A DNA stretch of 63,990 bases, counting the filler, from Malassezia furfur (Eukaryota), in NCBI GenBank assembly GCA_052055015.1. It is 3 parts of 3 records of this genome, joined end to end, with 100 filler letters (N's around TTAATTAATTAA, not from the genome) between each part and the next. Parts side by side here need not be neighbours in the genome. Positions count along the whole stretch, not along the records: positions 1 to 21,734 come from JBQJIT010000166.1; positions 21,835 to 43,353 come from JBQJIT010000167.1; positions 43,454 to 63,990 come from JBQJIT010000176.1. The stretch is one strand, 5' to 3'. Every line of letters begins with the position of its first letter. The stretch's first letter is position 1. The notes under the pieces are model-generated. The model searched no databases and was not told the DNA's origin. It worked only from the letters and a program-made list of their open reading frames with translations. The position numbers and the translations under genes were made by a program. Positions 506 to 62,213 of this stretch are shown here, one piece after another.

Positions 506-1188
506 ATGCACGACGACGCGTGCGTGCGCCCCGCCCCGGGCACGGCCCCGGCGCCGCATGCACGCGACTACATTCAGACCACGGCCACCGGCAATGCCAT
601 CTCGCGTCGCGCCGCCATTTACGGCGCCGCCCATATCGTACTCGGCGGAAAATGCATCGTCGAGCACCGCGCCGTGATCCGCGGCGACCTCACGCGCGCG
701 CTTCGCGCCGAGGACGCGGAGCGGTCCGGCACCTCGATGGCCATCTCCATGGGGCGCTACGGGTGCGTGGGCGAACGCGCCATCCTGCGGCCCCCGAGCA
801 AGATTTACCAAGGGTACGTTGCTCATCCCTCACGCAAGCCATTTCTCCTACTTTCCGCAGCGCATCGGTGACTACGTATACATCGGTGCACGCGCCGTGG
901 TGGAGGCATCACAGATTGGCAGCTACGTCGAGATTGGCGAGGACTGCGTCGTGGTACGTAGGCCGGACTCACCCCCAGGGACCTTCGTGCGTGATCCGCG
1001 ACTGTGCCGTTCTCCTGCCCGGCGCCGTACTCGCACCAGAGACGGTCGTACCGAGTCTGTCCATATTTGGTGGTGCGCCCGCCCAGTTTGTCGCGCCCCT
1101 TCTCGAGTCGTTCCAGGAGGACTGTGAGGATCGCGCCCGCGGCGCCTACGGCGCCTTTCCAGCCGCCCTCGCTCCACGCCGCTCGTAA
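506..1188 (+). CDS. DCTN5: Dynactin subunit p25 (left-handed beta-helix); introns 814-838 and 954-978 (25 nt each)
   Basis: YIQTTATGNAISRRAAIYG..HIVLGGKCIV..IRGDL, RPPSKIYQGHFSYFPQRIGDYVYIG, VIRDCAVL..ETVVPSLSIFGGAPA. Removing the two GTACGT..CTCAC..AG introns joins three ORF-track frames. Confidence 0.9.
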
Positions 1189-1235
1189 ATTGTAGCCATT
1201 TCTCCACACTCCACCTTAGCCTACGCTCCGCCCTC

Positions 1236-2666
1236 ATGACGTCGACGTCGCCGGCGGCCGTGCGCCTGCCGTCGCTGCTGGACACGGATGTGTACAAGCT
1301 GACGATGCAACAGGCTGTCCTCAAGCATTTCCCTGACGCCAAGGTCACTTGTACGTCGGCGCGCACTCACCACAGACCGGTTCACGAACCGATCCAAGGA
1401 GATGCAATTCACGCAGCGCGCCGTCGAGTTGATCGAGCAGGGCATTCACCGTACGCGCACAACTCACTGACGCAGACCTTGGCGACCTGCGCATGACTCC
1501 AGATGAACTCGATTGGCTGCGCACCGCTTGCCCGTACTTTCAGCAACCCTATCTCGACTTCCTACAGACGTTCCAGCTGCAGCCGACCGACGAGGTGCAG
1601 GTGCGCTTCGTGCCCGGCACGCAAGAGAGCAACGGCGAGCGCATGGGCGACCTGGAAATTACCATCAAGGGCCTCTGGTCGCACGTCATCTTGTACGAGG
1701 TGCCCGTTATGGCCATTATCAGCGAGACCTTTTTCCGTACGGTCGACACCGACTGGACGTCTGAGGGCCAGCGCGAGCAGGCCGCACGTAAAGCATCTAC
1801 TCTCCTCACGAACGGAATTATGCTGTCCGAGTTTGGCACGCGCCGCCGCCGCTCGCTCGCGACGCACGAGGTGGTCATCCAGGGGCTGCTTGACGCCCAG
1901 GCACAGCTCGCCCACACGCCGCACACGGGCCGTGTGCTGGGCACCAGCAACGTGTTGCTGGCCAAAAAGTTTGGGCTCGCGCCCGTGGGCACGGTGGCGC
2001 ACGAGTGGACGATGGGCATCGCCGCGATTGGCGGCTACGAACACAGCAACTTGCGCGCACTGCAGCTGTGGGGCGATGTGTATGCTCCGCCGGCGTTTAC
2101 GCCGCAGCGGCCGAGCGAGGATCTGACGATTGCACTCACAGACACGTTCAGCACGCGCGTGTTCTGGGACGATCTCTTGTCCTGCGACAAGGGAATCGAA
2201 ATGCTGCGCCGCTGGCGCGGCGTGCGGCAGGACAGCGGCGACTCACGCGTGTTTGTGCGGCACGCGCTCGACGTTTACCAACGCATCGGTGTCGACCCAC
2301 GGAAAAAACTCGTGATCTTCTCCGACGGTACGTTTGTCGCTCACTTACGCGCCAGGCCTCAATGTCGACAAATGTCTGGAGCTGCAACAGTACGCGCGCG
2401 AGGTTGGCATCCAAGCCGGGTTCGGTGTCGGGACGCACCTCACCAACGACTTCCACAAGGCATCCAATCCGCAAGAAAAGAGCCGTGCGCTCAACATCGT
2501 GCTCAAAATCAGCTCGATTAACGGCCACCCCACGGTCAAGATTAGCGACGAGCTCACCAAGAACACGGGCGACGCCGACGAGATTGCGTACGTGCACCGA
2601 CTGACGATCAGCTTTGTCAAGCGCCGCTTTGGTCTCGAGGGTCAAGAGTCGGTAGAAGACGCATAA
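1236..2666 (+). CDS. NPT1: Nicotinate phosphoribosyltransferase; introns 1351-1375, 1451-1475, 2328-2355, probable in-frame 2588-2611
   Basis: SLLDTDVYKLTMQQAV, YRFTNR, EFGTRRRRS, GTSNV, GTVAHEW, ALTDTF, GVRQDSGD, IFSDGL, FGVGTHLTND, VKISDELTKNTGD. Confidence 0.95.
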
Positions 2667-2697
2667 TTATACAACACACGGGCGAACTATGTCCGGC

Positions 2698-3212
2698 CTA
2701 GGCCAGTTCCTCGCAAGGGCACATGCCGAGCATCGCGACGACTGCGGTGAGTATGCCACATACACTTGCGGTACTCGAAGCGCTTGCAGGTCCGATCCAG
2801 GTAGGCGGGCACGAGCAGCTTATCGATCTGGGTCAGTTGGTCCACGTACCGCCTCTTGGTCTCCGGCCAAGATTTCGCGCACGGTCGCGACGTCGACAAA
2901 CCCTTCGTCGCGCTCATCAAAGCTCTCGAATGCGTCAAGCAGCTTGCGGGCATCGCTAAGCGCACCCATATGGTTGCCCATCATGGTCAGAAAACTGGTC
3001 GCATCCAGGCCGCGGTCCGACAACTGCGTACCGACCACGTCGGGGCTCAGGTACGCCGGCACCTCGGCCGCTGCGTCCTTGGTCCCAAGGCTACGCAGCG
3101 TCTTGTTCACATCGTCTGGACTAATGTAATTGTCTTCGTCGCGATCCACGGCGTAAAACACGCGCTGGAGCTGCTTAATCTGCGCCGGCGACAGGCTCTC
3201 CAGACCCGACAT
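2698..3212 (-). CDS. EF-hand myosin regulatory light chain-like protein; introns 2828-2849 and 2742-2763 (22 nt each)
   Basis: QIKQLQRVFYAVDRDEDNYIS, FLTMMG, LLDAFESFDERDEGFVD; splicing gives the C-terminus ..RFEYRKFVAMLG.., typical of RLC/calmodulin-like proteins. Confidence 0.8.
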
Positions 3213-3274: not shown

Positions 3275-4300
3275 ATGTTGCTGCCCGTGACACCCGGGCG
3301 GTCGTCGCCGTGGCGTACGCCGCAGAGCGCGGCGCGTAGGATGCAGAACACGGGTCGAAGTGCAGGGCGAGGGACCGGATCCTCCCCGAGCCTGGTTGCG
3401 CCTGGATCAGGTGCCATCGAGGCTGCCTCGCCCACGTCGATCGCGGTGCGTCCTGCGGCGCCGACAACGGTCGCACCAGCGGCACCGCTGTCAACCACGC
3501 CGGCAGTGCCCGCTGCATCTGTGGCCGTGGAAAAACCCAATGTGACCAGTAATCCGCCGTCCGCGGCGCCCGAGAAGCGTGCGCCATCTGCGCGCGTGCA
3601 AATGACGCCGGCGACGGCGCAGCGTCGCGCGTCGTGGAATGCTGCGGCGCTGCTTCTTCTGTACGGTGTACCTGCCGTGTGGCCGCGGCTACTGGATGTA
3701 TATTATGATGTGCTCGAGATGGTGGTTGAGCTCGGCAAGCTGCCGCCTGACGCCGACGAACTGATCGATACGGTACTAGTGTGGATGCGGTATGCCATCA
3801 CCATTGTGTTTGTGCTGAACCTTGCTGAGGCACTCATGGTGCGTGCACCGCCTGCGACAATCGAGGCGCGCCCGACCGAGGTCGGCGCGGCGTTTGCGCG
3901 GAGCGTGTCGAGCGGCTCGCCGCTAACGCGACCCGATGTGCCGCTGAAGCGGAAACCGAGCGGCGTGCCGAGCCCCGTGACGCCTGCGTCGCCCGTGTCT
4001 GGCTCTCCGGCGCGCTCGCCGTCGCTGCGTGCCGAGTCGCCGTACGGGCGTGCGTCGGCTGCGTCGCCGTACGCGTTGGGTCGCGGGCGGCCGTCGACCC
4101 CTTTTTCCGCACGCGTACCGTCCGGCGCAACGGCGCGGCGCACTCCGAGCCACAAGGACGTGTTTGCGGGGCGCAGTGTGAGCCGCTCCTCTCCCGGGCA
4201 TACACATTCGCCGCGCGCACGCACCGAGCTGGGTACGTGGGTGGTGGCTGACCTAGATGATGCACATGAAGTTGAGCTGGCATTGCAGCAGCTACGCTAA
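3275..4300 (+). CDS. Two-TM protein with S/P/R-rich flanks, possibly nuclear-envelope associated; probable in-frame intron 4233-4256
   Basis: Long ORF with two hydrophobic segments (NAAALLLLYGVPAVW; WMRYAITIVFVLNLAEAL) and many SP/TP sites; family not confidently recognised. Confidence 0.55.
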   Translation: MLLPVTPGRSSPWRTPQSAARRMQNTGRSAGRGTGSSPSLVAPGSGAIEAASPTSIAVRPAAPTTVAPAAPLSTTPAVPAASVAVEKPNVTSNPPSAAPEKRAPSARVQMTPATAQRRASWNAAALLLLYGVPAVWPRLLDVYYDVLEMVVELGKLPPDADELIDTVLVWMRYAITIVFVLNLAEALMVRAPPATIEARPTEVGAAFARSVSSGSPLTRPDVPLKRKPSGVPSPVTPASPVSGSPARSPSLRAESPYGRASAASPYALGRGRPSTPFSARVPSGATARRTPSHKDVFAGRSVSRSSPGHTHSPRARTELGTWVVADLDDAHEVELALQQLR

Positions 4301-4945: not shown

Positions 4946-7333
4946 ATGGTGCGCGTAATTGTCAAGGGCGGCGTGTGGAAGAATGTGCGTAGCAGCTGGC
5001 TGACGGGTAGACCGAGGACGAGATCCTCAAGGCGGCCGTGTCCAAATATGGGAAGAATGTAGGTGGTGTGACTCACACAGCAATGGGCACGTATCTCGTC
5101 GCTGCTTGTGCGCAAGTCGCCGAAGCAGTGCAAGGCGCGCTGGTACGAGTGGCTCGACCCGTCGATCAAGAAGATTGAGTGGTCCAAGGAGGAGGATGAA
5201 AAGCTGCTGCACCTTGCGAAGCTGATGCCGACACAATGGCGCACCATTGCGCCGATTGTGGGCCGCACCGCGACACAATGCCTGGAGCGCTACCAGCAGC
5301 TGCTCGACGAGGCAGATGCGATGCACGACCCGCTCGGCCTGGCGGGCCCCGGCGCGGAGACGGCGCCGAGTGCCGACGACGTACGTCGCCTGCGCCCCGG
5401 CGAGATCGACCCCGACCCCGAGACAAAGCCGGCTCGCCCCGATGCGGTCGACATGGACGAGGAGGAGAAGGAGATGCTGTCCGAAGCGCGTGCGCGTCTG
5501 GCCAACACCGAGGGCAAGAAGGCCAAGCGCAAGGCGCGCGAGCGTGCGCTTGAGGAGGCACGCCGCCTCGCGACGCTGCAAAAGCGGCGCGAGATGAAGG
5601 TTGCGGGCATCTACGCGCGACCAAACAAGAAGGAAAAGTTTCACATCAACTACAGCGCGGAGATCCCGTTTGAGAAGCAGCCCGCGCCCGGGTTCTATGA
5701 TACCACGGAGGAGAATGCGCGCACGTTTGACGCGCCGCTCGGGCGCACGATCGGCTCGATGGAGTCCAACGGCCGCGACGTCGAACAGGAGAAGCGCAAG
5801 CGCGAGGCCAAGCAGCCTAAGCAACCCAAGCACGACGACGCCTTGCGCCGGCTCCTGGAAGAAGAGGTAGTGACGAAGCGGCGCAAGCTGCAGCTCCCCG
5901 AGGCGCACGTGGGCGACCGCGAGCTGGAGCAGATCGTCAAGCTTGGCCAAGCGGGCAACGCCGCGCGCGAGCTCGTCGAGGGCGACGCCGGCGCGCCGAC
6001 CGACGGCTTGCTCGGCGAGTACGCCACGATGGAGCCGCCCGAGACGCCCGTCGCGGCGCCCAGCTCGTCGTCCCACGATGCTCTGCTTCGTGAGGCGCAC
6101 AACCTCAAGCGCCGCACCGAGACCCAGACGCCGCTGCTCGGCGACGATAATGCCGCACTGCTCGAGACGCCGAGCGCGCGTGCGGCGCCGACGCCCGGTG
6201 CACCCGGCGCGACGCCACGCACGGCCATCGGCGCGACGCCTGGCGCGACGCCGTACCGCGACACGCTCGGGCTCAACGCCGAGCCGAGCACACCGCGCAC
6301 GGAGCGGGCGGCACAGCGTGTCGCGAAGCACAACCTGATTGCGGCACTGCATGCGCTTCCACGCCCCAAGAACGACTTTGAGCTGGTCGTTGACGCCGGC
6401 GAGGCGCAGGCCGACGTGCCATCCAAGCGCACCGTCGAAGAGGATGCGGCGGAACGCGATGCGCGACTGGCGCGCGAGGCGGAGGAGGAGCGCCAGCGTG
6501 AGTTTGCGCGGCGGTCGCAGGCGGTGCAGCGTGACCTGCCGCGGCCGCTCGAGGTCGACGCGGCGGCGCTCACCGCGGAGCTGGCAAGCCTCGAGCCGGA
6601 CGCGGTGCAGCGCGAGATCGATGCCGAGATGGTTGCGCTGATGGCGCACGATGCGCGGCTCTACCCTCAGCCCGGCTGCCGGCTGCCGGGCGGCGCCGTG
6701 TCGCGCCTCGCGCCGGTCGACGATGCGGCGCTCGACGAGGCGCGGCAGCTGGTGCACGGCGAGCTGGCCGAGCAGCTGGGCTTCCCTGGTGCGCGGCCCG
6801 AGGCGCTCGCGGCGCTCATGCGCGACCAGGCCGATGCGCTCGATGCGCCGCTCGCGGCGGTGCGTGCGGCGTCCGTGTGGAGCACCGAGCGCAACACGTG
6901 GGTCCTGCGCGAGGACCTGGGCCTCTCGGAGGTGGTGCGGATGCATGCGACGCACCTCGATGCGCTGCGTACGCGCATGCAGGAGCAGGCAGCGGCGGCG
7001 GCCAAGGCCGAAAAGACGCTCGGCAAGCTGCTGGGCGGCTACCAGGCGCGCTCTAAGAAGCTGGCGGGCGAGATTACTTCCGCCGCGCAGGCACACACCG
7101 AGGCGTCGCTGAGCCTCGCGGCGTTTGAGCGCCTCGCGCTCGGCGAGCAGGGCGCGGCGCGCGACCGCCTCGAGCGCATCCAGGAGGCCGTTGGGCACCT
7201 GCAGCGCACCGAGGCTGCGGCGCAGGCCGAGTACCGCGACTTGGACGCACGGCGTGCCGAGGCGCAAGAGGCCTACGAAGCGCTCCAGACCGAGCTCGAT
7301 ATGCGCCGCGCCGAGCAGGCCCTCATGGCGTGA
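4946..7333 (+). CDS. CEF1: Myb-domain splicing factor Cef1/Cdc5; introns 4985-5010 (26 nt) and 5059-5080 (22 nt)
   Basis: Spliced N-terminus [88 protein letters not shown]. Confidence 0.97.
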
Positions 7334-8660: not shown

Positions 8661-10473
8661 ATGGCCGCGTCGTCGCGCGTGCGCCTCGCACTGGAGCGCG
8701 TGCTCCATGCGCCGCTCACGGACGAGGCACAGGATGCGCACGATACTTTGTTACTGCGCGAGGCGGAACTGCTCGATATTCTTGCGAGCGGCGAGCCCGT
8801 TCACGCGGAAAAGCAGACACCGCTCGAGGCGCGGCGGCAGGTGCGCCTGCAGATGTGGGCCGAGCGCGGTGACTTTTCGGCGCTGCATGCCGCGGACCTT
8901 GCGCCTGAGAACAAAGAGACACAGAGCGCGCTCGAACAGCTGCGTGCACTGCGCCGCGAGGCGTCCCCGGCACCGACCGCCGCGCCGATCCAGGCCGGGA
9001 CCATTGCCGAGTCGGAGTTTTTTCCGCTGCGCGACCGCATGCTGCACCAGCTCGAGATGGCGCTGTTCAATGCCGAGCAGGCTCAGAATCTGCTAGGCAT
9101 GCTCATTCACAATGCGCGTGCTCAGGTCGCACCAGGCAGCGACCTGACGACGGTGCTTGCAGCGCAGCCTGAATACTTCCTTGAGCCGCAGACCGTTTCG
9201 CTCAGTGCGCTCGCCAAGCCGCAGGAGGACGCGGAGCCCGAATCTGCAGCAGACTCTGCGCCACTGCATGAACGCAAGCTACTCTTAGAGCAAAAAGAAC
9301 AGTCGCTGCGCCGCTGCGCCGACATCCTCGCGAGCGGCGCTATGGAACTGCGCAAGAGCGCTCCGTCGGAGCGGGCACGCTGGTCAGCGCTGAGTGCGAT
9401 CCTAAAGCGCGGCTGGAAGCTCACGCCGGGGCGCCCGCTCGTGGACATGGAACGTTTCGATATGGCCGGACGCCGCACCAACGTCTTGGACGGCTTCGGC
9501 ACTCCCGTGCTCCAGGGCAGCGGCGCGCTCAACGAGGAAGGCGCGCGCGATGCATGGATTGGATACGGTCCTGCTGAGGCGCCCATCTCGCTGTTTCAGC
9601 GTACGCTGGCGTACTGGGCCGAGGCGAGTGATGACCACAGCGCACGCCTCGCCTTTCCTGACCGAGCGTGGCGGCAGCTGCGCGTCACGTTCCAGACCAC
9701 CGACAAGAGCAAGCGATGGGTGAGCAGTGCTCGTGTTCCCGACGCCGAGGCGTCGCTCGATGCGCAACTGTGCGATGCACAGCGCGACGCGGTCGATTCG
9801 CAGCTCTTCCATGACCTGGCTGCACACTCGGGTACGCTGTCGCCCGTGTTGGCGCACGTCGTGAGCGAGTCAAGCATCACGCTACCGCTCTCGTCCGGAT
9901 TGGAGCTGGAGATTGCGCTTGTGCCCCAGGACGCGGTGGAGGCCGAGGACGAAGCTTCGCCGCACGCGTCGCTGCTGCTCGCGGTGCTCCGGCTGCGGAT
10001 GCTGCGCAGTTGGACGCAGCGCATCGATGCGCAACGGAGTGCGCGCATCAATGCGCGGCAGCCGCCGCCGCGCGTGGATCTGATGGCGCCGTTGTGGCGC
10101 TTGTACCAATATACCCTGGTACGTAACCGCACTGACGCAGTACCTTTCGCGGCTCCGTGCGGTGCTGGACCGTGTTGTGGACGCACATGCAGATGCGACG
10201 TACGTGTGGAAGCCTTACGAGATGTTGGCCGACGTGCGGACGTGGCTGGTGTCGCTGCTGGACCTCGCGAGCGAGGCCGGGGCAGACCCCGCCTGTGGGG
10301 GCACCGTCCTGATCTACCGTGGCTCCAGCCTCGTGGCGCAGCTCGTGCTTCGTGCGCCTAGCCACCTGCTCGCCTTTTTTCCGCAGCACCAGACGCTCGC
10401 GAGCACCGGTGTGCGCCTCCCGCTGGAACTGGGTCAGCTCGAGGCGCGCCTCAGTGCGGAGCTCCGACCATAG
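8661..10473 (+). CDS. MED17: Mediator subunit Med17/Srb4; intron 10119-10140 (22 nt)
   Basis: RDRMLHQLEMALFNAEQAQNLLGML, SLRRCADILASGAMEL..ERARWSAL..GWKL, DAQRDAVDSQLFHDL resemble Med17 blocks; the intron joins ORF 8499 to ORF 10162. Confidence 0.7.
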
Positions 10474-10513: not shown

Positions 10514-11018
10514 ATGCGATTCGGCCTGCTGTGGACTGCGCTGGCGTGCGCCGGCCTTGCCGGCGTCGCGGCCAAGGAGCCGCCCAAGATGATGCAGATT
10601 GGTACCAAGTTTAAGCCGGAAAAGTGCGAGTATCGCACACAGCGTGGAGACGAGCTGGTGATGTACGTACTACCCTGGCTTACACTAGGCAATACACGGG
10701 CAAGCTATGGGACGGCACGAAGTTTGACTCGTCGTACGACCACGGACAGCCATTTGTACGTACAGGCGCGGGCGCAGCGTGCTAACGCAGACCTTTACGC
10801 TTGGCATTGGCCAGGTGATCCGTGGCTGGGACGAAGGCCTGCGCGAGATGTGCATCGGCGAAAAGCGCCGCCTGCTGCTGCCGCCGCACTTTGCGTATGG
10901 CCCCAAGGGTGCCGGGAGTGTAATCCCGCCGGATGCGTCGCTCGTGTTTGACGTTGAGCTGCTCGACATCCAGGGCCCACGCATCACCGCGAGCAAGGTT
11001 ATGCACAAGGAGCTGTAG
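10514..11018 (+). CDS. FPR2: ER FKBP-type peptidyl-prolyl isomerase (Fpr2/FKBP13); introns 10663-10688, 10756-10790
   Basis: Signal peptide, [65 protein letters not shown]-terminal HKEL. Confidence 0.9.
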
Positions 11019-11026: not shown

Positions 11027-11466
11027 TTAGGTACGCTGGGCGCGCGCGCCACGCCCCCGTCCCCGCTGTGCATCGCCACGCCCGCGCCCGTCGCGGTTGT
11101 GCCCCGCAGCGGCCTGGCGCTGCTTGCGCGCGTGTTCTTCGGACTCGCGCACAGCGTCGATCAGGGCATCTGCAACGCGGCAGTACTTGATCTGTGTGAG
11201 CGCAGGACGACCTACCGTGCTGCCCTTGATATAGCACTCTTCCATCTTCCAGAACTGCTCGCCGCTGGCGCTGGTCTGGTACACGTCCTTGAGCGTGATG
11301 TTCATAAAGTTGTCACACGCCTGAAGGTTGCCGTTGAACGTCTCGCCGTTCTTGAGCTCCACGAGCTGTGTAAGTGGAACGCGCACGTACAATCGGCTTG
11401 TTTTGTGCCGCATTCAGCAGCGTGAGGGGAAGCTGGTGTCAGTGCGTGCGCACGCCCACGTACCAT
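11027..11466 (-). CDS. LSM4: U6 snRNA-associated Sm-like protein Lsm4; introns 11433-11463, 11366-11390, 11192-11215
   Basis: Spliced [59 protein letters not shown], RG-rich tail; the first coding exon is the ATG only. Confidence 0.95.
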
Positions 11467-18540: not shown

Positions 18541-18569
18541 AGTGGAGGTCACCTCCAAGCTGTGCGTCG

Positions 18570-27307: not shown

Positions 27308-27338
27308 AGCGTGTGACGTATGTGGAGGTATGGAGGAT

Positions 27339-49400: not shown

Positions 49401-50975
49401 CGCGGCGTGCTCGGCGTCGTGCGCACGCAGCGCCGCGGTGTGCTCGGCCTGGGCTTGAGCGAGCGCCGCGGCGAGCGCCTGTGCGTGCTCGGCGTCGCGC
49501 GCCGCCAGTTGCTGGGCATGGGCCGCCTCGGCCCGCGCGACGGCCTCGGCCGCAGGGTCGCCCTCGGTCATGACACACGCGTCGATAAGCTCTGGTTTGA
49601 ACGCATACTCTGCATCGAGCTCCGCGCCGAGCGCGCCGGTATGGATCACGCCGCTCGGCGAGCGCATCGTCAGGCTGCGCAGGCCGGCCTGGTCCGCCAT
49701 CGACGGGTGCGTACCGAGCAAGTCGGCCATCGACGGGTCGAGCGACACGTCCTTCACAATCACGCTCTCGTCCGCAAACTCCTCGTCGATCCAGTCGGCG
49801 TTCTCGGGGACCTCGGGCACGATGGGGATGTGCGTGTCGCGCGACATGATGCGCCGGTGCCCCGGGCGTTTCGGCACACGCACCGGCCGCGGCACGTGTG
49901 GCACCGCGACCGACTCGGTGATCCACGCCTCGTCGTCGTCCGCGACCGACGTCTCTTCGTCCTCCTCCTCGTCGTCGCTCGGCACCGGCAGACCGGCCGT
50001 CGTAAGAGAGCGCCGCAGCTCCACCAGCTGCTCGCGCAGCTTGCGCTGCTGCTGCCCGTCGCGCCCGATGCGCTTGAGCGCGACCGCGAGCTTGGCACGC
50101 AGGTCGTCTGCCTCGGACGCGGCCGGCATGGGCGGCGGCGTACTGTGCACCGCGTCGTCGTCAAGCGCAAAGCGGTGCCGCAGCGGCGGACTGTCTTCCG
50201 TCGTGGGTGTCGTCGGCGCGAGGGGCGCCGCCACCTCCATCGTGGGGCTACGCAGCGGCTGCCGCGGGCGCTCCGTAACCTGCATGCGTTTCAGCTGGCC
50301 CTGCAGGTCGGAGATGTTGCGCCGGAAACCGGCACGCTCCCGGCGCGACAGTGCTTGGGCGGTCTCGTGCTGCTTCTGCAGCTTGCGCACTTCCTCCTCA
50401 CGGCGCTCGAGCTCGGCGTGCTGCGCCTCGTACGTCTCACGCACCTGGGCAAGCTCGGCGGCGAGGCGCTGCCGCTCGCTCTCGGCCTTGTTTTGCGCCG
50501 CGGTGCGGGCGGCCAACTGCTCTTCGAGCTGCTGGTGCGCGACGTACAGGTCCCAGTTTTCCTGCTTGACTGCATCGTGCTTTGTTTCGAGGTCTGCGAC
50601 GCGCATCTTGATCACGTCGACCTGGCGCGCGGCCTCCTCCTTGTCGTGCCGCAAGCGGTCGACGTCGCCGGTGGGCGCCGGTTGTGCCCCTGTGCCAAAG
50701 AACGGCGGGACGCGCGCCGTGGCGCTGCGCTCGAGGCCAAGCGCATGCGTGATCTGCTCCAAAAGTTTCTCGCGCTGCGCGTGCATTTCGTGCAGCTCGG
50801 CGAGCACCTGCTCGTCGTCGGCCTGGGCCGCACGCGACGGGTCGTTGACGTCGTCGAGCAGTGCCTCGAGCTGCCGCTGGTGCTCGAGCAGGCCTTGGCC
50901 CAGGAGGCCGGCCGCATGCGTCTGTTCCTTCACCGCATCGATCCCTTCGCGGATCCGCGCTGCCGGGTGCGACAT
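43454..50975 (-). CDS. NUM1: Num1/ApsA/Mcp5-like cortical dynein anchor with giant repetitive coiled coil and C-terminal PH domain (3' truncated)
   Basis: N-terminal coiled coil (AAGLLGQGLLEHQRQL); C-terminal ILQCMIGEYMWKYVR..ERRHRRYFFINPYNRTIHW..PPGLY..RELKLTAP..RH..W, typical of the Mcp5/Num1 PH domain. Confidence 0.85.
44250..49520 (-). repeat. Degenerate coding tandem repeat, 33/66-nt (11/22-aa) period, consensus about EHAAALDALRK
   Basis: Recurrent GTGCTC (E-H) on the + strand at 33-nt multiples; near-exact 66-nt copies start at 46183, 46249 and (partial) 46315. Confidence 0.85.
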
Positions 50976-53241: not shown

Positions 53242-55046
53242 ATGTTCGGCGCACGAAGCTTTCGCGCGGCGGGGGCGCTGCGCACCGCGTGTGCCTCCCG
53301 GCCCCGCGCATGGGCATCGGGGGCCGTAGTCGGCGGCAGCGCACTTGCCTACTCGCTCGCCGCTGTCTGGAGCGACGGCGACGCGCTGCAAGGCGCGCCG
53401 ACGGAGCAGCGCTTCCCGCTCTGCTCCGTGTTCGCGTGGGGCAACAACCGGTAGGTAGACGCGCGCACGCTGACGCCAGCGACAAGGTCGTCGCACCGCA
53501 CAAGAACAAGAGCGACATTAAGACACCGGCGCCTATCCCGGCGTTTGACGGCGTCGCGCTGCGTGACTTGCAGCTTGCCGAGACACACGGCGCGGCCGTC
53601 GACGCCCACGGCGACGTCGTGCAGTGGGGCGCCGGCTTCACCGATGAACTCGATCCCAAGGCGCCCCTGGTCCCGCAAAAGACGCTCGTGGGCATGGACA
53701 TTGTGAAGGTGCAGTTGTGTGGGCCCAAGGTGTATGCCCTGTCGCGCGGCGGGTCGATTTATGTGTTCGCCGCAGAGCGCATCCTCCAGCTCACGCCGGG
53801 GTCGTGGCGTGACAAGCTGCCGGGCGCCTCGGCAACGATCGACTACGTCAAGCTCGACACGGTCGCTGACGGCCGGCCGACCAAGGAGCGTTTCGTGTCG
53901 ATCGCCGCGGGAAAGCACCACCTCCTCGCTCTCTCCCAGCGCGGCACCGTGTGGTCGGTGCCAGTTGATGAGCACGCCAACGCCTACGGCCAGCTGGGCT
54001 ATTCGCAGACCGCCCTCAACGCCGCGCCCGAATCGCAGCGCACGCAGGTGGAGGCCATTCCCTGGCGCCTCGAGCCGCAGATCCTCGCGCGCAAGCGGCA
54101 GGGCGCCGGATCGACGACGTCGCTGCTCGACGTACCGATGGGCGACCTGCCCGAGGGTCGCGTGTGGGTCGCGCCAAGCAACATCCGCTTTGCGACGCAG
54201 CTTCGCCCGATTCCCTCGCTGCGCGACGTGGAAATTGCACAGATCGCCGCCGGCCTCGAGCACTCAGCGGCGCGCACGCCGACGGGTCGCGTCGTCGGCT
54301 GGGGTCGCAACACGTACGGCCAGCTGGCGCTCGGCGAATCGTCGTTTGGCGACACGATCGCGGTGCCGACCGAAGTGCGCTGGCCCCACGCGGTGCTGGG
54401 CGCCGACACGCGGTGCACCGATTTGGTCGCCGGTGCACACAACACCTTTTTCGTGATGCGCAGCAATGGGGCGCCGCCAGCTCCCAAGGGCGACGATGAC
54501 GATGCGCCGCCGAAGCCCCTGGTGCTCAAGGATCGTGTGGACGTGCTGGCCGCGGGATGGGGTGAGCGCGGATCGCTTGGCAATGCGCTGCGCTCGCAGG
54601 TCTGTAGCGTGCCGGCGCGCGTGAAGAACGTCTCGGGGCTGCTCGAGTACTCTGAGCAGCAGCACACCGTCGTCCCGATCGGCGTGCGGTCGCTGAGCGT
54701 TGGGCCAGACGGACAATGTGCGCTGGTGGTCGATGTCAACTCGCTCGGCGAGCAAAACCACCGCGACGTGTGGGTGTGGGGCGCCAACGACCAATACCAG
54801 CTCGGGAACGGCAAGCACTCGAACCTCGCGACGCCCGCGCTGCTCACGCTGCCGCTCCCCGGCGGCGAGGCGACAACGCAAAAGAACGGGCCGACGCTCA
54901 ACCGCCTCCTGCTCGTGGAGCGCAGCAAAGTGCCCGGCAAGGCGTACGAGGCGGACGGCAGCGGCAGCCAGCGCAAGTACCACATCGAGCAGCACATCGT
55001 GGCCGGCGGCGATGGCATGGCGGTGTACGGGCGTGTGGTGCTATGA
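53242..55046 (+). CDS. FMP25: Mitochondrial RCC1-repeat protein (Fmp25-like); intron 53451-53479
   Basis: Arg/Ala-rich presequence, VFAWGNN, IAAGKHHLLAL, AYGQLG, IAAGLEHS..GWGRNTYGQL, WGANDQYQLGNGK. Confidence 0.75.
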
Positions 55047-56089: not shown

Positions 56090-56582
56090 ATGTCGAACGA
56101 GCCCTCGTACGAGGAGTACGTCGAGCGGTATGTCTACGACCTGACCCAGGATTCACTACTCGGAGAAATACTGTGATGACAATTGGGAATACCGGTAGGT
56201 TGCGCGTGTTGCGCCGCGCCAAGCACGGTGCTTATACCAGTCACGTCATCCTTCCAAAACCGTTCCTGAAGCGGATCCCCAAGTCGTACTTTGATCCAGA
56301 GGAGCCCGGTGTGCTCCGTATTCTTTCCGATGCGGAATGGCGGGGGATCGGCATCACGCAGAGTCTCGGCTGGGAGCACTACGAGGTGCATGGTACGCAC
56401 ACGCAGCTCACGCCCAGCCCCCGAACCGCATATCCTTCTTTTCCGCCGGGAAAAGGACTACCAAGAAAAGGTACGCCGCGCACACACTCACACAGTACGG
56501 CCCCCACGGCAAACCCTCGGATGCAGCCAAGATCAAGGCCGCCTCCGCCGCACAGCAGCAAAACATGGGCGGACCTCGTTAA
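56090..56582 (+). CDS. CKS1: Cyclin-dependent kinase regulatory subunit; introns 56128-56149, 56195-56240, 56393-56417, 56471-56495
   Basis: Spliced [56 protein letters not shown]. Confidence 0.95.
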
Positions 56583-56725
56583 ATAGACGCTGCATAGCTA
56601 CGACGCCAGTGTGAAACTGACTGACCAGGCCACGGCACTCGTGCCGCGCGTGCAATCGGTGCAAACACCCGTGGGCGAGGCTTGACATGCCCTTGGCGCG
56701 TCGCAATTATTTCTCCACTCTCGCG

Positions 56726-58486
56726 ATGGTGCCCACCGAAACCGACTTCGCGTGCGCGATGGAGCGACCGCGCGATGTCGTGCAGGAGATCTATGGTACG
56801 TGGCGCACGTAATCCAGCACAACATGCCTCGCTGCCAGACACGGTGCGTGGCGTCGAGGCGCACTTTCGCGAGCTCTTTCACGACCCAGAGAGGCGCATG
56901 CGCGTACGTTTTGGGCGCTGACGCAGATCCCTCTGCTGGACGAGGGCAACCTCGACACCCTCTTGCAGCACGCACAAAGCCCCGAGGGGCGACGAAATGG
57001 CGTGCTGGTGCGGTGGATCTGCATGATCCAGGACACGGGCGTACGTGTTCCGCTTACCCAGTTTGGCTGCGAACTGTTCCTGGGCACGCTCCGTGCGAAC
57101 GACTCGTCGGTGTGCGGCCTGTACGGCGCGGAAGCGCGCTTTGATGCTATCCAGGAGACGGACGCGTCACCCCATAACATGGCCGAGCGGCTCGTGGTGT
57201 GTGGCGTCTCCATACCGGGCGAGTCGCCGTGGGTGCACCAGCTGCTGGCCGGCAGCGAAGACGTCACCGCGGCGCTTGCGCGCCTCGCCCTGAATGGTGC
57301 CGACCGCGCAAAACGCGCGGCGTCGGAACGCAGCCCCATCGCCGAGCAGCCAAGCATCACAGCGCTGGTCAAGCTCGCAGACGTGGACCGAGCCGAGCAG
57401 CTGCACACCACTGAGCTCATCGAGGTGCTTGGCCTGCTGGACACCAGCTTCTTGCCGAACCCCGAGCTTCCGATCGAGGGCACGGCCGAGGACTCGCTGC
57501 CGCAGCTGCCGTGCATCCATGCGCTGTGCTTTGACCGGGTGCAGGAAGATGCGGCGCTCCTGCCCATGCTCCACACCGCGTCGCTGACGGCGCCGCCGGC
57601 GTTTGCAGGTGTGGAAGAGACGCGGAATGCGATCATCGGCTATCTCGTGCACAACCTGGCGGGCGACGTCCTCGCCGCTGAGTTTGTGCTTTTGGCACTA
57701 CTCGCCAAGATGTACGTGCCTTGCTCACCCAGCCATGTCCGCCGCCCTGGCTTGGCGGTCGGTTCGCTCTCGCTGAACCTGTCGCACGTGGAAAGCACCG
57801 CGGTGCACCTCGGCCTGTTTGACGCCATTGCGTCGCTGGTACCCGCGGCGGTCGCGGAGCGCATGACGCTCGACAACCTGAACGACGCGAGCCGCTCCTT
57901 CTACGTACGCAGTACCGATGCGGGCATGTCGGCGGGGCGGCTGCAGCTTCCACGCAACACCTGCGTTGTCGTGGACGAGGTATGCCTTGGCGACGGCAAG
58001 CTGCTGGACGCCGGCGTCCGCAACGTGCGCGCCCTGGCCAACGTGCTCCAGAACCACACACTCACCTACCAATTCCCCTTTTCCGAGCTTGAGCTTGACA
58101 CGGATTTGAACGTGGTGGTGGTCAGTACCGGCAAGTCGTTGCTGCCCGTCGACGTGCAAGTTCCGCTGCAGGGCGAGCATGTAAGCCTCGGCGAGACATG
58201 TGTGCCTGCGCCTCCCGCGGCACTCACCGCATTCCGTGCGTACGTGCTGCAGGCACGCCAGGCGCAGGCCACCGTGCCCGAGTCCATGTCGATCCCGATC
58301 CAGAACTACTTTGTCGAGCGCCGGCAGAGCGGGCCGCGGTACGCGTACACCGAGCTGGACTTGCAGCGGTGTCTGAACCTCGCGCGCATCGTTGCCGTCT
58401 CTTTCGGGCAGCGTGAGCTGACGCCCGCGGCATGGGCGCACGCCGTGCAGCTGGACGAACAGCGGATGCAGCGCCTCGCTCCGTAG
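56726..58486 (+). CDS. MCMBP: Mini-chromosome maintenance complex-binding protein; introns 56796-56817, 56904-56926, 57041-57061, 57712-57732
   Basis: LVRWICMIQD, ER..VSIPGESPW, LAGDVLAAEFVLLALL, GRLQLPRNTCVVVDE..GKL..GVRN, YQFPF, STGKSLLP. Confidence 0.88.
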
Positions 58487-58500
58487 CCTCCACATACCCC

Positions 58501-59926
58501 ATGGTCCGCGACTTGGCGCAGCAGCGCGTCGGGCGCGCAGATCGCGCGAGCGACGTGGGACGCGCGAGCGGTGCGAGGCGCATCCCACAGGATGCATCGC
58601 CGTGGGCACACAGTCGTCCGCCCTTCCGCTCGGCGCACGCTAACGTGCTCGCAACGCCGCCGCGCGCCGCGTCGCCCGAGCGATCGTCGGCGAGGTCGGC
58701 GTCCGAGCAGCCTGCCGCGGCGACCACGCCACGCACACCGCATACCCCGCTCCAGCGCAAGGGTGCGTATGCCAGTCCTGCGCGGCCATATGCGCGCACG
58801 GCAGAGCAGCCGACCGAGCGTGCGACGGCGCCGCCGGCGTCCGCGTGGCCCTGGACTTTGGATGGGCGCGAATGGTGCGTGCAAGGCTCACATAGGCTCG
58901 TGCAGCTCTCCAACGCATTCCAGTCGGGATGGCAGAGCCTCGAGATGGAGCTCGAGCAAGCCATCTACTCGCCCGAGCTCGGTGTGCCGATTGGCATTGC
59001 CCTGCATGCCTTGTCGCTGCTGTCACAAGTCATGCTGCCTGGCTCTTCGTTTGCGCTCCCGTGTGTCTCGTCGACATATGCGCCTTCGAGCCAGCGGCGT
59101 GGTAAAACGCATCTCTTTTCGCAGCACCGCCGCAGCGACGACCGCAAGAGCTACTCGGCGCACCTCGGCCGCTTGCTTGCGGCGCAGCGCATGGCCGCTC
59201 AGCGCTATGCGGTACGTTGAACTCTGACCCAGTCGCGTGTGCTTTCGCTCGCACTGATTTTTGTCGCTCTGTACAACGCATACCTGCTCTTCCATCGGCG
59301 GCGCACGTACCGTTTGTGGTACCGCGAGGAGAAGGTGCGCTCTTTTCTAACGCAGGATGTGCTCTCCAACCCTCACGCCTCGCTTGAGGAGCCGCCGACG
59401 GACCCACCGGCGCCGCGTAGCTGGCATGAGCTCGCACGGTACGTAAGAATGCTCATGCAGTGACTGGGCACTAGCTGCGGCTCGTCAAGTCCCGGTCGTG
59501 GAGTGGTTTGTACCGCCGGCACCCATTCCCGCAGCACCGCCGAAGCGCGAACGCATTTACACGCTGCGGGTCTGGGACGTACTCGAGGCGCCGCTCTATG
59601 TCTTTGCGTACGTCGTGTGCTGACCCAGCCTCTACTCGCCCGCCCATGCACTGTGGTGGGCCATGGCTGGCTCGCTGGGGCTTGGCGCATGGACGACGTG
59701 GCTGCTGACCGCCGTGCTCATGAGCGCATTCTCGCTGCAAACCTACTACCTCGGTGTGCAATACGCGGCGCTCGTGCGCGACCGCCAGGTGCTCTCTGCC
59801 GAGGTGCTGCGCGAGTACGATGAAAAGGTACGTGACTAGCTCATGCAGTTTGTCCTGCCGCGCGCAATGCCGCTCGTGCGCGAGGCATCGACGATGACCG
59901 ACGTGCATGGTGCCGATTTTGATTAG
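58501..59926 (+). CDS. NUR1: Nuclear rim protein Nur1/Mug154-like; introns 59212-59232, 59335-59355, 59439-59460, 59608-59628, 59828-59848
   Basis: PIGIALH, NAYLLFHRRRTYRL, LRVWD..FALYSPAH, VRDRQVLSAEVLREYDEKFVLPR emerge only after splicing five 21-22-nt introns. Confidence 0.8.
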
Positions 59927-60447
59927 GCATCGTCGTAGGCCCGCCTACGTTCTTCCCAAACGTCGCGGTCGTCCACATCCGCCCGCGGCGCATCGTAGTC
60001 CGGCCGCTCATCCCGTGCATTTCCCCTGGGTGATCGCTCCTGGTCGTCGCGCTGGGCGCGACCCCAGACGCGCCGCGGAGGGCTGCGCTCCGCGCGGCGC
60101 GGCGGCATGCGCGGCCCTTCGAGGCGTGGATCCTCAGAGAGTGTCGCACGAATGTACACGCCGTCAATCTGACCATTGTCCATGTGTTCAATGGCCCTCT
60201 CGGCATCTTCGATGCGGTCGTACTGCAGCACCGCACTGCGCCGCAGCGTGTCTGGGTCAGGGGCGCACGTACCTCTTCGTACGCGAAGCCGCGCGATCCG
60301 ACCGTAATGCCCAAAGATCTCGTCGAGGTGTCGGTCGTCGACCTTGTCCGTGAGGCCGTATACGTAGACATTGGGACGTGCGTCGCGCGTAGGCGGCGGC
60401 GTCCGCTCTGCCGGCAGGTGCGGCACGCGCTCGGGGCTCGACGCCAT
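59923..60447 (-). CDS. Small RRM protein with Arg-rich tail (RNPS1-like); probable in-frame intron 60252-60272
   Basis: VYVYGLTDKVDDRHLDEIFGHYGRI..AERAIEHMDNGQIDG. Confidence 0.7.
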   Translation of the reverse strand: MASSPERVPHLPAERTPPPTRDARPNVYVYGLTDKVDDRHLDEIFGHYGRIARLRVRRGTCAPDPDTLRRSAVLQYDRIEDAERAIEHMDNGQIDGVYIRATLSEDPRLEGPRMPPRRAERSPPRRVWGRAQRDDQERSPRGNARDERPDYDAPRADVDDRDVWEERRRAYDDA

Positions 60448-60552
60448 GGCCCCCCTTCGACGTGCTTAGTCAGGGTGTTCTTTGTGTGTGCGCGCACCGA
60501 CCATCATAAAGGCGCGCGGGGGGGCGCCGCGCGCCCTTGAGGGCGTGCGGCG

Positions 60553-62213
60553 ATGCCTATGGTCCTAAACTGGCTGGGAATCGCGGTGGTCATCGCCTGG
60601 TACATGTATGGCGCAGTGGTCACGACGCAGCAGCGCGTGACGCAGCTCGCAGACCTGCTGATCGATGCACAGCAGGACTGGCAGGCCGCGTGCCGCCGCG
60701 TCGACGCGGCGGCAGCGGCAGTGAGCAGCCTACCACAGGATCTGGCATGGAGCATTGGCAACGAGTCGCTGCGCGTCGTCGAGGCCATGCTCCATACGCT
60801 TGCACGCATTCTTCTCGCCCTGTACGTGTGCTTCTGACGCAGCCTTGACATGGGTGGCCTGGTGCTCGCGTGGATCTGCTCATCGTACCGCGCCATCTTT
60901 GTGTGCACGGTGCAGCTGGTGGTGCAGGGCTCACTCGCGCTTCTTGACGCTGCGACGCAGGCCATCGCCGACGCCGTGCGGGCCGCTGGGCAGGCGCTGG
61001 AGGCACTGCTGCGGACGGCGATCCAAGGTGCGCAAGGCGCCGCAGATGTGGCGACTGACACGCTCAACGGCGTGCTGGGCGTGTTTGGGACGCACGTCGA
61101 TGCGCCGCAGCTCAGTGAGCCTGCGGCGCTGCAAGTGCTGCGTAACATTACGCTGCCCCCCGCCCTTGTGCAGCCGTTCCGTTCTGTCCAGCTGCCGACG
61201 GTCGACTCGCTGCGTGCCGCGTCGCGCGACACGTTCGACGGCATACTCCAGAATGTCAAGCAGGACATCCGTGCGGGTCTCGGAAGTGTTGCATTGCCGA
61301 TACCGCCGCGCCCCGCGGTGCGTGCGCCGCCGGCCGTGTGCCGCGACGTGGCGTGGTCGGCGTTTGACGATGGGGCGCATGAGCTTGCGCGGCTGGCGTA
61401 CGGCGCGTACTTTGCCGCAGCGATTGGCGCCGCGCTCGCCCTTGGCCTTGCATGCGGGGCGTGCTGGCTGCGCCCGCGGACGCCCTCGCCGAGCGCCGGA
61501 TGGGCAGACGTGCGGCACCGCGCACGGACCGCCTTGACCAGTCCGCTGCTCGTGTTTGTCGGTGCGCTCGTTTTGCTGCACGTGGGGGTGGTGCAAGTTG
61601 AGCTGGGGGTCGTGCATGCGATGCGCCAGCGGCTGGACGAGGTACGTTGCGGCGACTCACGCAGCTCCCTCGCATGCCCACGGCGTCCGCGCCGGCGCTC
61701 GTCGGCAGTGCCGCCGAGGTGGTACGTGCGACGAACGCACAGCTCGCCCAGGTACAGAACGACGTCAATGCGGTGCTGGCGCGCGGCGTCAACGAGGTGG
61801 TGCCCGGGGCGCTCGCTGCCCTCAATGCCGTGTTTGACGTGATCTCGGGTACGATCCGCGACGTGCTAGGAGCGACGCCGCTGCAGGCGCCCGTGCAGCA
61901 GTTTGCCATGTGTGTCGTCGGCAACAAGGTGCTCGCTGCGGAGCGCATGCTGCGCCAGCTGCAGAGCGCTCTGCGCGTCGAGATGCCGGCACTGGCGCTC
62001 GGTGCGATGCCCGCGCCCGCGGCGCTGCTGACGCCTGCCCTCGGCGCGCTGGCCGACGATGCGCTGCGCCCCGCGTACCGTGCGCTGGCGCGGCACGCCG
62101 CGTCGCTCGAGCGCGACCGGCTTGCGACGCTGGGGATCGGTGGCGCAAGTGCGGTAGTCGTCGCGGCGCAGATCCTGTGGCCTGTGCGTCGTCCAGCACC
62201 GAAAGTCGTCTAA
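60553..62213 (+). CDS. PRM1: Plasma-membrane fusion protein Prm1-like; introns 60822-60842, 61642-61664
   Basis: AAC..AA..SLP, SYRAIFVCTVQLVVQG, central TM pair, FG/LGATPL..PV..CVVGNK pattern of Prm1; the introns join three ORF-track frames. Confidence 0.7.

Follow-up and report, generated by a model that had tools for sequence, protein, structure and literature searches.

The introns of this Malassezia furfur DNA are very probably normal GT-AG introns of the major (U2-dependent) spliceosomal type, in a yeast of the M. furfur clade, and appear to have shrunk nearly to the smallest size that the splicing machinery accepts. At the sequence level, the occurrence of ultra-short introns is confirmed for the window, i.e., the whole 64-kb stretch analysed. 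Our own census re-derived ~53 GT-AG introns in ~37 genes (0.83 per kb; intron G+C 60%), as against 52 counted in an earlier note, and its outermost members begin at 814 and stop at 61664, the same span as claimed before. The lengths were 21 nt (12 candidates), 22 nt (8), 23 nt (3), 24 nt (4), 25 nt (10), 26 nt (4), 30 and 31 nt (2 each) and, once each, 27, 28, 29, 35, 43, 45, 46 and 79 nt, with a median of 24 and a mean of 26.4. The 21-25 nt class, where the mode lies, comprises 37 of the 53 (36 in the previous count), and the nine introns formerly placed at exactly 21 nt become 12 candidates, again with none shorter. The five introns singled out earlier (two in the EF-hand gene and one each in Cef1, Gdh2 and Cks1) are all 22-nt GT..AG elements located where they had been placed. 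The complete set is as follows (strand in brackets).

814-838 (+): 25-nt intron, dynactin-5 gene; frame restored; Pfam DCTN5 passes from 74 to 81, 6 residues for 6 positions
954-978 (+): 25-nt intron, dynactin-5 gene; frame restored; Pfam profile 116 then 118
1351-1375 (+): 25-nt intron, NAPRT; frame restored; NAPRTase_N 1-24, a 24-aa exon, then 51 onward, count exact
1451-1475 (+): 25-nt intron, 5' site GTACGC, NAPRT; same NAPRTase_N count
2328-2355 (+): 28-nt intron, NAPRT; frame restored; NAPRTase profile 149 then 151
2588-2611 (+): 24-nt candidate, in frame, stop-free, NAPRT; highest motif score (16.2 bits); yeast NAPRT 1vlp aligns only as far as this element, which is no more than suggestive
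2742-2763 (-): 22-nt intron, EF-hand gene (as next); frame restored
2828-2849 (-): 22-nt intron, EF-hand (calmodulin / myosin light-chain-like) gene; frame restored; Pfam and PDB matches identify the exon as EF-hand
4233-4256 (+): 24-nt candidate, in frame, stop-free, ORF without assigned function; motif only, 14.4 bits
4985-5010 (+): 26-nt intron, Cef1/Cdc5 gene; frame restored; residue numbering (29 residues before QW in the spliced N-terminus; the start of exon 3 aligns with residue 30 in human CDC5L and 28 in fission-yeast Cdc5)
5059-5080 (+): 22-nt intron, Cef1/Cdc5 gene, KYGKN/QW; Pfam and solved-homologue residue numbering
10119-10140 (+): 22-nt intron, Med17 gene; frame restored; top motif score
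10663-10688 (+): 26-nt intron, FKBP gene; frame restored
10756-10790 (+): 35-nt intron, FKBP gene; FKBP_C profile 35 then 36
11192-11215 (-): 24-nt intron, in frame, stop-free, LSm4; read-through gives an 8-residue insertion relative to three solved LSm4 chains
11366-11390 (-): 25-nt intron, LSm4 gene; residue count as next
11433-11463 (-): 31-nt intron, LSm4 gene; frame restored; residue count (15 residues precede exon 3, whose first residue corresponds to residue 16 of LSm4 in human and S. pombe)
17029-17049 (-): 21-nt intron, in frame, stop-free, pseudouridine synthase gene; the 7 residues of retention in 0/17 representatives
17117-17139 (-): 23-nt intron, pseudouridine synthase gene; homologue alignment
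17159-17184 (-): 26-nt intron, pseudouridine synthase gene; homologue alignment
17282-17303 (-): 22-nt intron, 5' site GTAAGC, pseudouridine synthase gene; 16/17 aligned representatives gapless here and over all four junctions of the gene
17502-17522 (-): 21-nt candidate, in frame, stop-free, gene 17373-18540; motif only, exact 21-nt layout
18208-18232 (-): 25-nt intron, gene 17373-18540; frame restored
18562-18640 (+): 79-nt candidate, GTPase gene; gene model only, weak; doubtful
26412-26456 (-): 45-nt intron, alternatively 58 nt with the boundary at 26399, gene 26268-27307
26610-26640 (-): 31-nt intron, gene 26268-27307; frame restored
26699-26719 (-): 21-nt candidate, gene 26268-27307; motif only; the alternative 27-nt reading (26693-26719) matches the usual geometry better
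26903-26932 (-): 30-nt intron, in-frame stop, gene 26268-27307
27936-27959 (-): 24-nt intron, in-frame stops, THOC3-like WD40 gene; WD40/THOC3 Pfam matches in both flanking ORFs, one frame
28973-28999 (-): 27-nt intron, in-frame stop, CTK3 gene; flanked by CTK3 and CTK3_C
34767-34796 (+): 30-nt intron, in-frame stop, four-RRM gene
35316-35340 (+): 25-nt intron, NAD-GDH (Gdh2) gene; frame restored; a 27-nt intron with stop at the same site in L001, a 73%-identical relative
36682-36703 (+): 22-nt intron, Gdh2, FNK/SLLKTNF; spliced protein gapless against the L001 ORF, intronless across this junction and the next
36766-36790 (+): 25-nt intron, Gdh2; gapless against the same uninterrupted ORF
42380-42405 (-): 26-nt candidate upstream of the synaptobrevin ORF; odd geometry, implied N-terminus implausible; doubtful
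53451-53479 (+): 29-nt intron, RCC1-repeat gene; frame restored
56128-56149 (+): 22-nt intron, Cks1, ER/IHYS; spliced model 93/96 identical, gapless, to the Cks1 part of P0005
56195-56240 (+): 46-nt intron, Cks1; CKS profile count exact; P0005 alignment
56393-56417 (+): 25-nt intron, Cks1; P0005 alignment
56471-56495 (+): 25-nt intron, Cks1; frame restored; junction at the end of the P0005 alignment
56796-56838 (+): 43-nt intron, MCM-binding protein gene; a 22-nt reading in the same frame (56796-56817) matches the usual geometry better
56904-56926 (+): 23-nt intron, MCM-binding protein gene; frame restored; relatives' proteins have 8 intron-like residues here
57041-57061 (+): 21-nt intron, in frame, stop-free, MCM-binding protein gene; P0003 and P0005 continuous across
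57712-57732 (+): 21-nt intron, in frame, stop-free, MCM-binding protein gene; MCM_bind 320 then 323, count exact; 7 residues absent from P0003 and P0005, kept in M. furfur P0002
58875-58895 (+): 21-nt intron, in frame, stop-free, Nur1 (DUF2418); P0011, P0012 and P0013 without the 7 residues, ORF call P0010 with them
59212-59232 (+): 21-nt intron, in-frame stop, Nur1; relatives' proteins
59335-59355 (+): 21-nt candidate, in frame, stop-free, Nur1; weak 5' site GTGCGC, PWM only 4.6 bits; ~8 residues missing from relatives at this site
59439-59460 (+): 22-nt intron, Nur1; frame restored
59608-59628 (+): 21-nt intron, in-frame stop, Nur1; P0012 and P0013 continuous across
59828-59848 (+): 21-nt intron, in-frame stop, Nur1; P0012 and P0013 continuous across, P0011 keeps 7 residues
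60252-60272 (-): 21-nt intron, in frame, stop-free, small RRM protein gene; top motif score; M. brasiliensis P0007 without the 7 residues
60822-60842 (+): 21-nt intron, in-frame stop, gene 60559-62213
61642-61664 (+): 23-nt intron, gene 60559-62213; frame restored

In 33 of the 53 introns the length is not divisible by three and their removal joins coding frames, and eight of the 20 in-frame introns carry in-frame stops. Protein-level support (Pfam continuity, solved homologues, relatives' proteins and ORFs) was obtained for 29 junctions, while four candidates (2588, 4233, 17502 and 26699) were called by motif only, three introns have alternative boundaries (26699-26719, 26412-26456 and 56796-56838), and the candidates at 42380-42405 and 18562-18640 are doubtful. 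The abundance of the short class far exceeds chance. The strict motif GT[AG]NGT..CTNA[CT]..YAG was found 30 times at 21-25 nt against 1.6 expected from 200 first-order Markov simulations, and twice at 12-20 nt against 1.3 expected, both times nested in 22-nt or 24-nt matches. A length-free PWM (at least 12 bits) gave 30 against 0.4 and 0 against 0.2 matches in the same two ranges. The scan is not biased by length: run on other fungal loci it returned matches of ~38-52 nt, and on L001 and L002 matches of 24-28 nt.

Three signals would nearly fill each intron: a strong 5' site of the form GTACGT or GTRNGT, a branch site of CTNAC type near the 3' end and a YAG placed almost directly after it, so that a pyrimidine tract has no room. 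This agrees with the architecture proposed earlier (GTACGT, CTNAC-type branch motif, YAG, no polypyrimidine tract); GTACGT occurs in 32 of the 53 introns and an unusual C at +4 of the 5' site in 40, frequencies that are partly circular because the catalogue was assembled with the motif model. The putative branch adenosine, placed by this motif, is followed by 5 nt in 29 of the 53 introns and by 4 nt in none, which bears out the -6 position previously described as frequent. It lies at position 16 or beyond in 52 introns (14 of them exactly at 16, none at 14-15), the sole exception being the doubtful 42380 element, and at least 5 nt follow it in 51, both exceptions having alternative boundaries. 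The minimal lariat loop for this putative adenosine is 16 nt, in line with the former estimate of about 16. As far as motif-placed adenosines can tell, two distinct minima, position 16 and the 5-nt tail, add up to the 21-nt floor. Well-formed 21-nt introns share one layout of 6 nt + 6 nt + 5 nt + 1 nt + 3 nt, leaving only 6 nt from the 5' hexamer to the branch motif.

Two requirements could underlie such a floor. The branch adenosine would have to stand at least at position 16 from the 5' end, the resulting 16-nt loop perhaps reflecting the seating of U1 on the 5' site and SF1/U2 on the branch site of one short RNA, and at least 5 nt would have to follow, a tail possibly set by the catalytic centre. 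The whole intron may be recognised as a single unit across its length, and the first YAG 5-7 nt past the branch point would be chosen without a U2AF65-type tract.

The most serious alternative, tentative though it is, takes the 21-nt floor as a small-sample effect, with rarer introns of 15-20 nt elsewhere in the genome. The floor is drawn from only ~53 introns in 64 kb, and a genome-wide share of shorter introns could therefore be up to ~5%; weak-signal introns can slip past the scan, as the 4.6-bit element at 59335-59355 illustrates, and introns of 15-16 nt are reported as spliced in Stentor in the available part of PMC9505925. Against this stand the abrupt onset (12 candidates at 21 nt, zero below) and the splitting of the floor into two independent hard edges. 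Neither motif scans nor a motif-free frame test reaching down to 10 nt left any intron below 21 nt in the 64-kb window that survived checking. Of two 20-nt layouts, one had no match and the other a single match, which falls within the 24-nt element 4233-4256. The frame test returned four candidates below 21 nt, none of them independent: three lie inside 21/22-nt introns and the fourth runs antisense to a gene. A 19-nt intron in our own model of the pseudouridine synthase gene was likewise ruled out by homologues, which place a 26-nt intron there (17159-17184).

It is rather improbable that some in-frame, stop-free elements of 21 or 24 nt are not constitutively removed, being instead coding loop insertions or alternatively retained, in which case the public models that keep them would be at least partly right. 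No stop is present in 11 of the 20 in-frame candidates; such elements are kept as residues by the window's own catalogued protein P0006 (the 7 residues of 60252-60272), by M. furfur P0002 and by M. brasiliensis P0011, and in the RRM gene the beta2-beta3 loop of solved RRMs (PDB) is nearer in length to the unspliced reading, though not decisively so. However, the exact 21-nt layout occurs 10 times against 0.03 expected in dinucleotide-preserving shuffles, and exactly those 7-8 residues are absent from homologues at 17029, 57041, 57712, 58875 and 11192. Moreover, residues differing between relatives (GTCAPDP vs. GTCAPHP) sit on the free N of CTNAC, as an RNA signal predicts. The intron-retaining models also seem error-prone, since the same models skip exons or fuse genes: P0002 keeps one intron and skips one exon, P0011 keeps at least two introns and skips one block, and one relative's gene model fuses Cks1 to the neighbouring gene. 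The earlier warning about mis-annotation by gene callers is thus directly borne out, with in-frame 21/24-nt introns often entering public proteins as 7-8 phantom residues.

Least likely of all is the earlier view that such short introns require an altered spliceosome or assembly route, in which U1/U2-associated factors are lost or truncated. The 6-nt spacing, the unusual +4 C and the proposal made for Stentor that involves non-conserved parts of branching factors close to the active site (PMC9505925, in part) could speak for it, whereas the window-encoded Cef1 and LSm4 align full-length to canonical solved homologues, the splice signals here are stronger than usual, not degenerate, and all snRNAs and U2AF are reported as kept in Stentor (PMC9505925) and myxozoans (PMC13644364) in the accessible parts of these sources. 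No snRNA genes were found in the 64-kb window.

In the fungal lineage of the microsporidia, the spliceosomal introns of Encephalitozoon (23-24 nt) vary little in length, carry strong 5' and branch signals and have their branch point adjoining the 3' site. Microsporidia, however, possess only some dozens of introns, and their spliceosome is reduced and splices inefficiently according to the accessible portion of PMC13644364, while the present DNA, with its intron density, belongs to a free-living, culturable yeast. In ciliates (Stentor, 15-16 nt; Paramecium, ~25 nt) the length is likewise at a hard minimum, and the Stentor tail after the branch adenosine is 5 nt, identical to the putative tail here, but its loop is 10-11 nt instead of 16 (PMC9505925, in part), and ciliate introns are AU-rich with a weak branch consensus in contrast to the G+C content and strong CTNAC motif of the window. 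Myxozoan and dicyemid introns (median 22-27 bp) resemble ours in a median in the low twenties, lack of a pyrimidine tract and a branch adenosine near the AG; unlike ours, they occur in parasites and their 5' and 3' motifs are reduced, and Malassezia does not appear among the lineages with introns <30 bp in the available part of that paper (PMC13644364).

Within the genus, very short introns have been published at summary level (PMC5389616, PMC6473144, PMC9241646 and PMC7426719, as far as their available text extends). M. sympodialis has 5350 introns with a mean of 30 bp, 99% of them with RNA-seq support (PMC5389616, Table 2), so the kind is already known; M. restricta introns have a mean of 37.2 and a median of 30, and annotators of Malassezia lowered the minimum intron length to 15-20 (PMC5389616; PMC6473144; PMC9241646). 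In the same accessible text, the papers on these two species give means and cumulative curves only, and a 21-nt floor, the fixed 16+5 geometry or in-frame retention was not found in print. The best named matches of the window are to M. furfur (94%) and M. brasiliensis (88-92%). The introns are a known genus trait, likewise GT-AG and a few tens of bases long, in a sharper form here, with a median of 24 and a mode of 21-25 against the longer averages available for M. sympodialis and M. restricta.

The short-intron feature is real, and an earlier note on the sequence had described it correctly. The analysis drew on the window itself (63,990 bases, G+C 63.7%, four short masked runs), on comparisons with proteins and protein profiles, and on a single relative from metagenome data. 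A dynamic-programming gene model that admitted only well-scoring candidates produced 30 genes with 39 introns; more genes and introns came from searching individual exons, and the ORFs of unmodelled regions, against Pfam and from homologue alignments, resulting in a final catalogue of 53 candidate introns in approximately 37 genes, with a density of 0.83 introns per kb, a median length of 24 nt and a mean of 26.4 nt. Two early gene finders (flat intron penalty; iterative retraining) were discarded: they chained genes via spurious long introns. The earlier note had counted 52 introns, 36 of them of 21–25 nt and nine of exactly 21 nt, against the re-derived 53, 37 and 12. The five introns it had named were all found in place, each as a 22-nt GT..AG element:

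2742–2763, RLC intron
2828–2849, RLC intron
5059–5080, Cef1 intron
36682–36703, Gdh2 intron
56128–56149, Cks1 intron

Lengths and signals of the 53 candidate introns (number of introns)
Length 21 nt: 12
Length 22 nt: 8
Length 23 nt: 3
Length 24 nt: 4
Length 25 nt: 10
Length 26 nt: 4
Lengths 27, 28 and 29 nt: 1 each
Length 30 nt: 2
Length 31 nt: 2
Lengths 35, 43, 45, 46 and 79 nt: 1 each
Branch motif: CTGAC 24, CTCAC 13, CTTAC 4, CTAAC 4, CTNAT 6, others 2
3' site: CAG 46, TAG 6, AAG 1

All 53 candidates start with GT and end with AG, the search having been limited to such pairs. The 5' site was GTACGT in 32 and another GTRNGY form in the remainder; GTRNGT was present in 47 and C at +6 in six, while G occupied +5 in every case. 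C at +4, as in GTACGT, was seen in 40 of the 53. A putative branch motif, CTNAC or CTNAT, was found in 51. These motif frequencies are partly circular, since the position-weight intron model (PWM) helped to build the catalogue. The putative branch A stood at position 16 from the 5' end in 14 introns, at 14–15 in none and at 13 in a single doubtful element. It was followed by 5 nt in 29 introns, by 6 nt in 13 and by 4 nt in none; two had 3 nt, both with alternative boundaries. The 21-nt floor therefore equals the sum of the minimal branch-A position and the minimal tail, 16 + 5. Among the 12 candidates of 21 nt, ten had the exact layout, one had a weak 5' site and one was possibly 27 nt long. 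Nine of the 12 lay within 4 kb in four adjacent genes (57041–60842: the MCM-binding protein, Nur1, an RRM gene and an unknown gene), and outside this cluster the window's introns were mostly 22–26 nt long.

Minor (U12-type) introns are marked by an extended, rigid 5' site of the form /RTATCCTT together with a branch site of the TCCTTAAC type. None of the 53 introns had the U12-type form of the 5' site, and the terminal dinucleotides, the 5' consensus, the yUnAy motif and the frame restoration all point to major (U2-type) GT-AG spliceosomal introns.

The frequency of such elements by chance was estimated with a strict pattern (GT[AG]NGT ... CTNA[CT] ... YAG, permitted length 12–60 nt) against 200 Markov simulations. 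There were 30 matches of 21–25 nt compared to 1.6 expected, and two of 12–20 nt compared to 1.3 expected, both nested in longer matches (22 and 24 nt) with a better 5' site. The PWM without a length term gave, at 12 bits or more, 30 elements of 21–25 nt (0.4 expected) and none of 12–20 nt (0.2 expected). The exact 21-nt layout, GTRNGT-N6-CTNAY-N-YAG, occurred ten times versus 0.03 expected in dinucleotide-preserving shuffles, and the two possible 20-nt layouts gave one match, nested in a 24-nt element, and zero matches. The scan is free of a bias toward short lengths: in other fungal loci it returned matches of approximately 38–52 nt; in the metagenome sequences L001/L002 of a close relative they measured 24–28 nt.

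When every GT..AG pair of 10–200 nt with coding flanks in the window was tested irrespective of motif, four candidates below 21 nt emerged; three of them lie inside introns of 21 or 22 nt, and the fourth is antisense to the aminotransferase gene. This leaves no independent intron under 21 nt, as the earlier note had claimed. A sample of about 53 introns is compatible with a share of shorter introns of up to roughly 5%. The read mapper STAR has a default minimum intron of 21 and treats smaller gaps as deletions, so that RNA-seq mapping could by itself mimic a floor at 21. The restricted gene model had proposed a 19-nt intron at 17159–17177, where homologues favor 26 nt instead, and had placed the Nur1 start codon at 58872, a false position that the relatives' proteins corrected; a false start codon accounts for the 19-nt model intron. 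The model's 26-nt element upstream of synaptobrevin is doubtful as an intron.

The sequence layout, the frame restoration and the protein continuity are direct observations. In 33 of the 53 candidates the length is not a multiple of three and the element joins two coding frames; the other 20 are in frame, eight of them with in-frame stops. Protein-level support was obtained for 29 junctions, and Pfam profile positions ran continuously across those in dynactin-5, NAPRT, FKBP, CKS and MCM_bind. In LSm4, 15 residues are encoded before exon 3, whose beginning corresponds to residue 16 in the human and S. pombe chains; if the 24-nt intron is read through, an eight-residue insertion relative to three solved chains appears at exactly that intron. 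Likewise, 29 residues of Cef1 precede exon 3, whose beginning corresponds to residue 30 in human CDC5L. For the pseudouridine synthase, the spliced 5' part gave gap-free alignments with 16 of 17 representatives across four junctions (22, 26, 23 and 21 nt), and the seven residues expected from a retained 21-nt intron were present in none of the 17. For the NAPRT 24-nt element, the PDB comparison is at most suggestive of an intron.

Relatives gave a similar picture. Spliced Cks1 and the protein of one relative were identical at 93 of 96 residues, without gaps. Proteins of M. psittaci, M. yamatoensis or Malassezia sp. CBS 17886 were devoid of exactly the seven residues in question at 57041 and 57712 and at four of the Nur1 introns:

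57041, MCM-binding protein intron
57712–57732, MCM-binding protein intron
58875, Nur1 intron
59212, Nur1 intron
59608, Nur1 intron
59828, Nur1 intron

The only close relative found in the metagenome scan was L001/L002 (about 21.6 kb, introns of 24–28 nt). At its 22-nt and second 25-nt sites, spliced Gdh2 aligned to an ORF of this relative that runs on without interruption. L001/L002 has a G+C of 47–48%, its Gdh2 is 73% identical and its other motif matches measure 24–28 nt; L001:8569–8595 is a 27-nt intron at the first Gdh2 intron site, and the other two sites are without introns.

The earlier note had also predicted that gene callers with a higher minimum intron size would mis-annotate these genes, and retained introns, skipped exons and fused genes indeed occur in the examined public models, the one from the window's own genome included. 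In these Malassezia models, in-frame introns of 21 or 24 nt are read as protein. The window's own protein P0006 (174 aa, 100% identical) keeps the RRM gene's 21-nt element (60252–60272, minus strand) as GTCAPDP; its M. brasiliensis orthologue P0007 is without these seven residues. The picture for this gene is mixed: in solved RRMs (PDB) the loop length is closer to the unspliced reading of this element. Over 56090–58486 the models of relatives (P0002–P0005) are faulty. M. furfur P0002 has 57712–57732 translated into seven residues and leaves out the exon before it; in M. psittaci and M. yamatoensis, eight intron-like residues stand where the window has its 23-nt intron in the MCM-binding protein; and in Malassezia sp. 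CBS 17886, P0005 fuses Cks1 to the neighboring MCM-binding protein into a product of 703 aa. In M. brasiliensis P0011, two 21-nt introns are kept and one block is missing. With the proteome models faulty in this way, comparative and structural work inherits small systematic errors. This corollary is useful and apparently undocumented.

Discussion of introns below 30 nt usually centers on ciliates, microsporidia and nucleomorphs and, lately, on parasitic animals. By sequence comparison, the host is a Malassezia species; the best named relatives were M. furfur CBS14141 (94%) and M. brasiliensis (88–92%). The window's mean of 26.4 and median of 24 nt agree with the published mean of about 30 bp, and the window is a sharper instance of a trait already known for the genus. 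The literature reports 5350 introns in M. sympodialis with a mean of 30 bp, 99% of them RNA-seq supported (PMC5389616), a minimum intron length put at 20 and later at 15 (PMC6473144), values of 37.2/30 for M. restricta and 68.1/40 for M. arunalokei (PMC9241646), an average of 76–79 for M. globosa (PMC4634964) and "very short introns" (PMC7426719). The part of PMC13644364 listing introns below 30 bp names ciliates, microsporidia, dicyemids and myxozoans, with Malassezia unmentioned there. For Malassezia, searches of the open-access literature turned up neither a 21–22 nt mode nor a floor nor a branch geometry on record. M. sympodialis is classed as intron-poor in PMC8476143; the window has approximately 1.4 introns per gene, and under-annotation of tiny introns may therefore affect intron-poverty surveys of this kind.

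Mechanistically, canonical U2-type splicing would operate here with the entire intron recognized as one unit and with the first YAG past the branch point used in the absence of a pyrimidine tract. The catalytic center would set the 5-nt tail, and the 16-nt loop would follow from the need to fit 5'-site and branch-site recognition onto one short RNA. The evidence neither favors nor counts against the modified spliceosome or assembly route suggested in the earlier note. Reduced-spliceosome introns of the microsporidian type go with the loss of many spliceosomal components from the host genome. Cef1 and LSm4, both encoded in the window, look canonical; no snRNA or other RNA family was detected in the window with Rfam. 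Stentor is reported to have the same 5-nt tail, whereas its loop is 10–11 nt compared to 16 nt in the window's introns (PMC9505925), and the snRNA sets of Stentor and myxozoans are complete, with U2AF present (PMC9505925; PMC13644364).

Taken jointly, it is possible, although we lean somewhat against it, that the spliceosome of the M. furfur clade is a fully canonical fungal one working at a strict physical limit (16-nt lariat loop + 5-nt tail = 21 nt) and that public Malassezia proteomes contain systematic phantom insertions of 7–8 residues, some perhaps dual-use (spliced or retained). Such insertions would follow from a third of the introns being in frame and many of them stop-free. If true, this would be unreported at such detail, and a culturable, transformable yeast would be the best available model of minimal-intron splicing. 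In Malassezia, a basidiomycete that is free-living and genetically tractable and whose introns would combine strong canonical signals with two sharp limits (16 nt and 5 nt), simple spacer mutagenesis would measure the minimal spacing that a conventional spliceosome tolerates.

At 26200–30400, with genes for THOC3-like, CTK3, Eaf6 and one unknown protein, the third-position G+C was lower, the introns were somewhat longer (24–45 nt) and the codon model failed. The single-exon ORF at 43398–50975 (minus strand; 2,525 residues, with a C-terminal Mcp5_PH as its sole domain) is intronless, unlike its neighbors, and its G+C is very high at the first and third codon positions. The masked stretches are four runs of 44 N at 21735–21834 and 43354–43453, one pair lying at the 3' end of the Mcp5/Num1-like gene.
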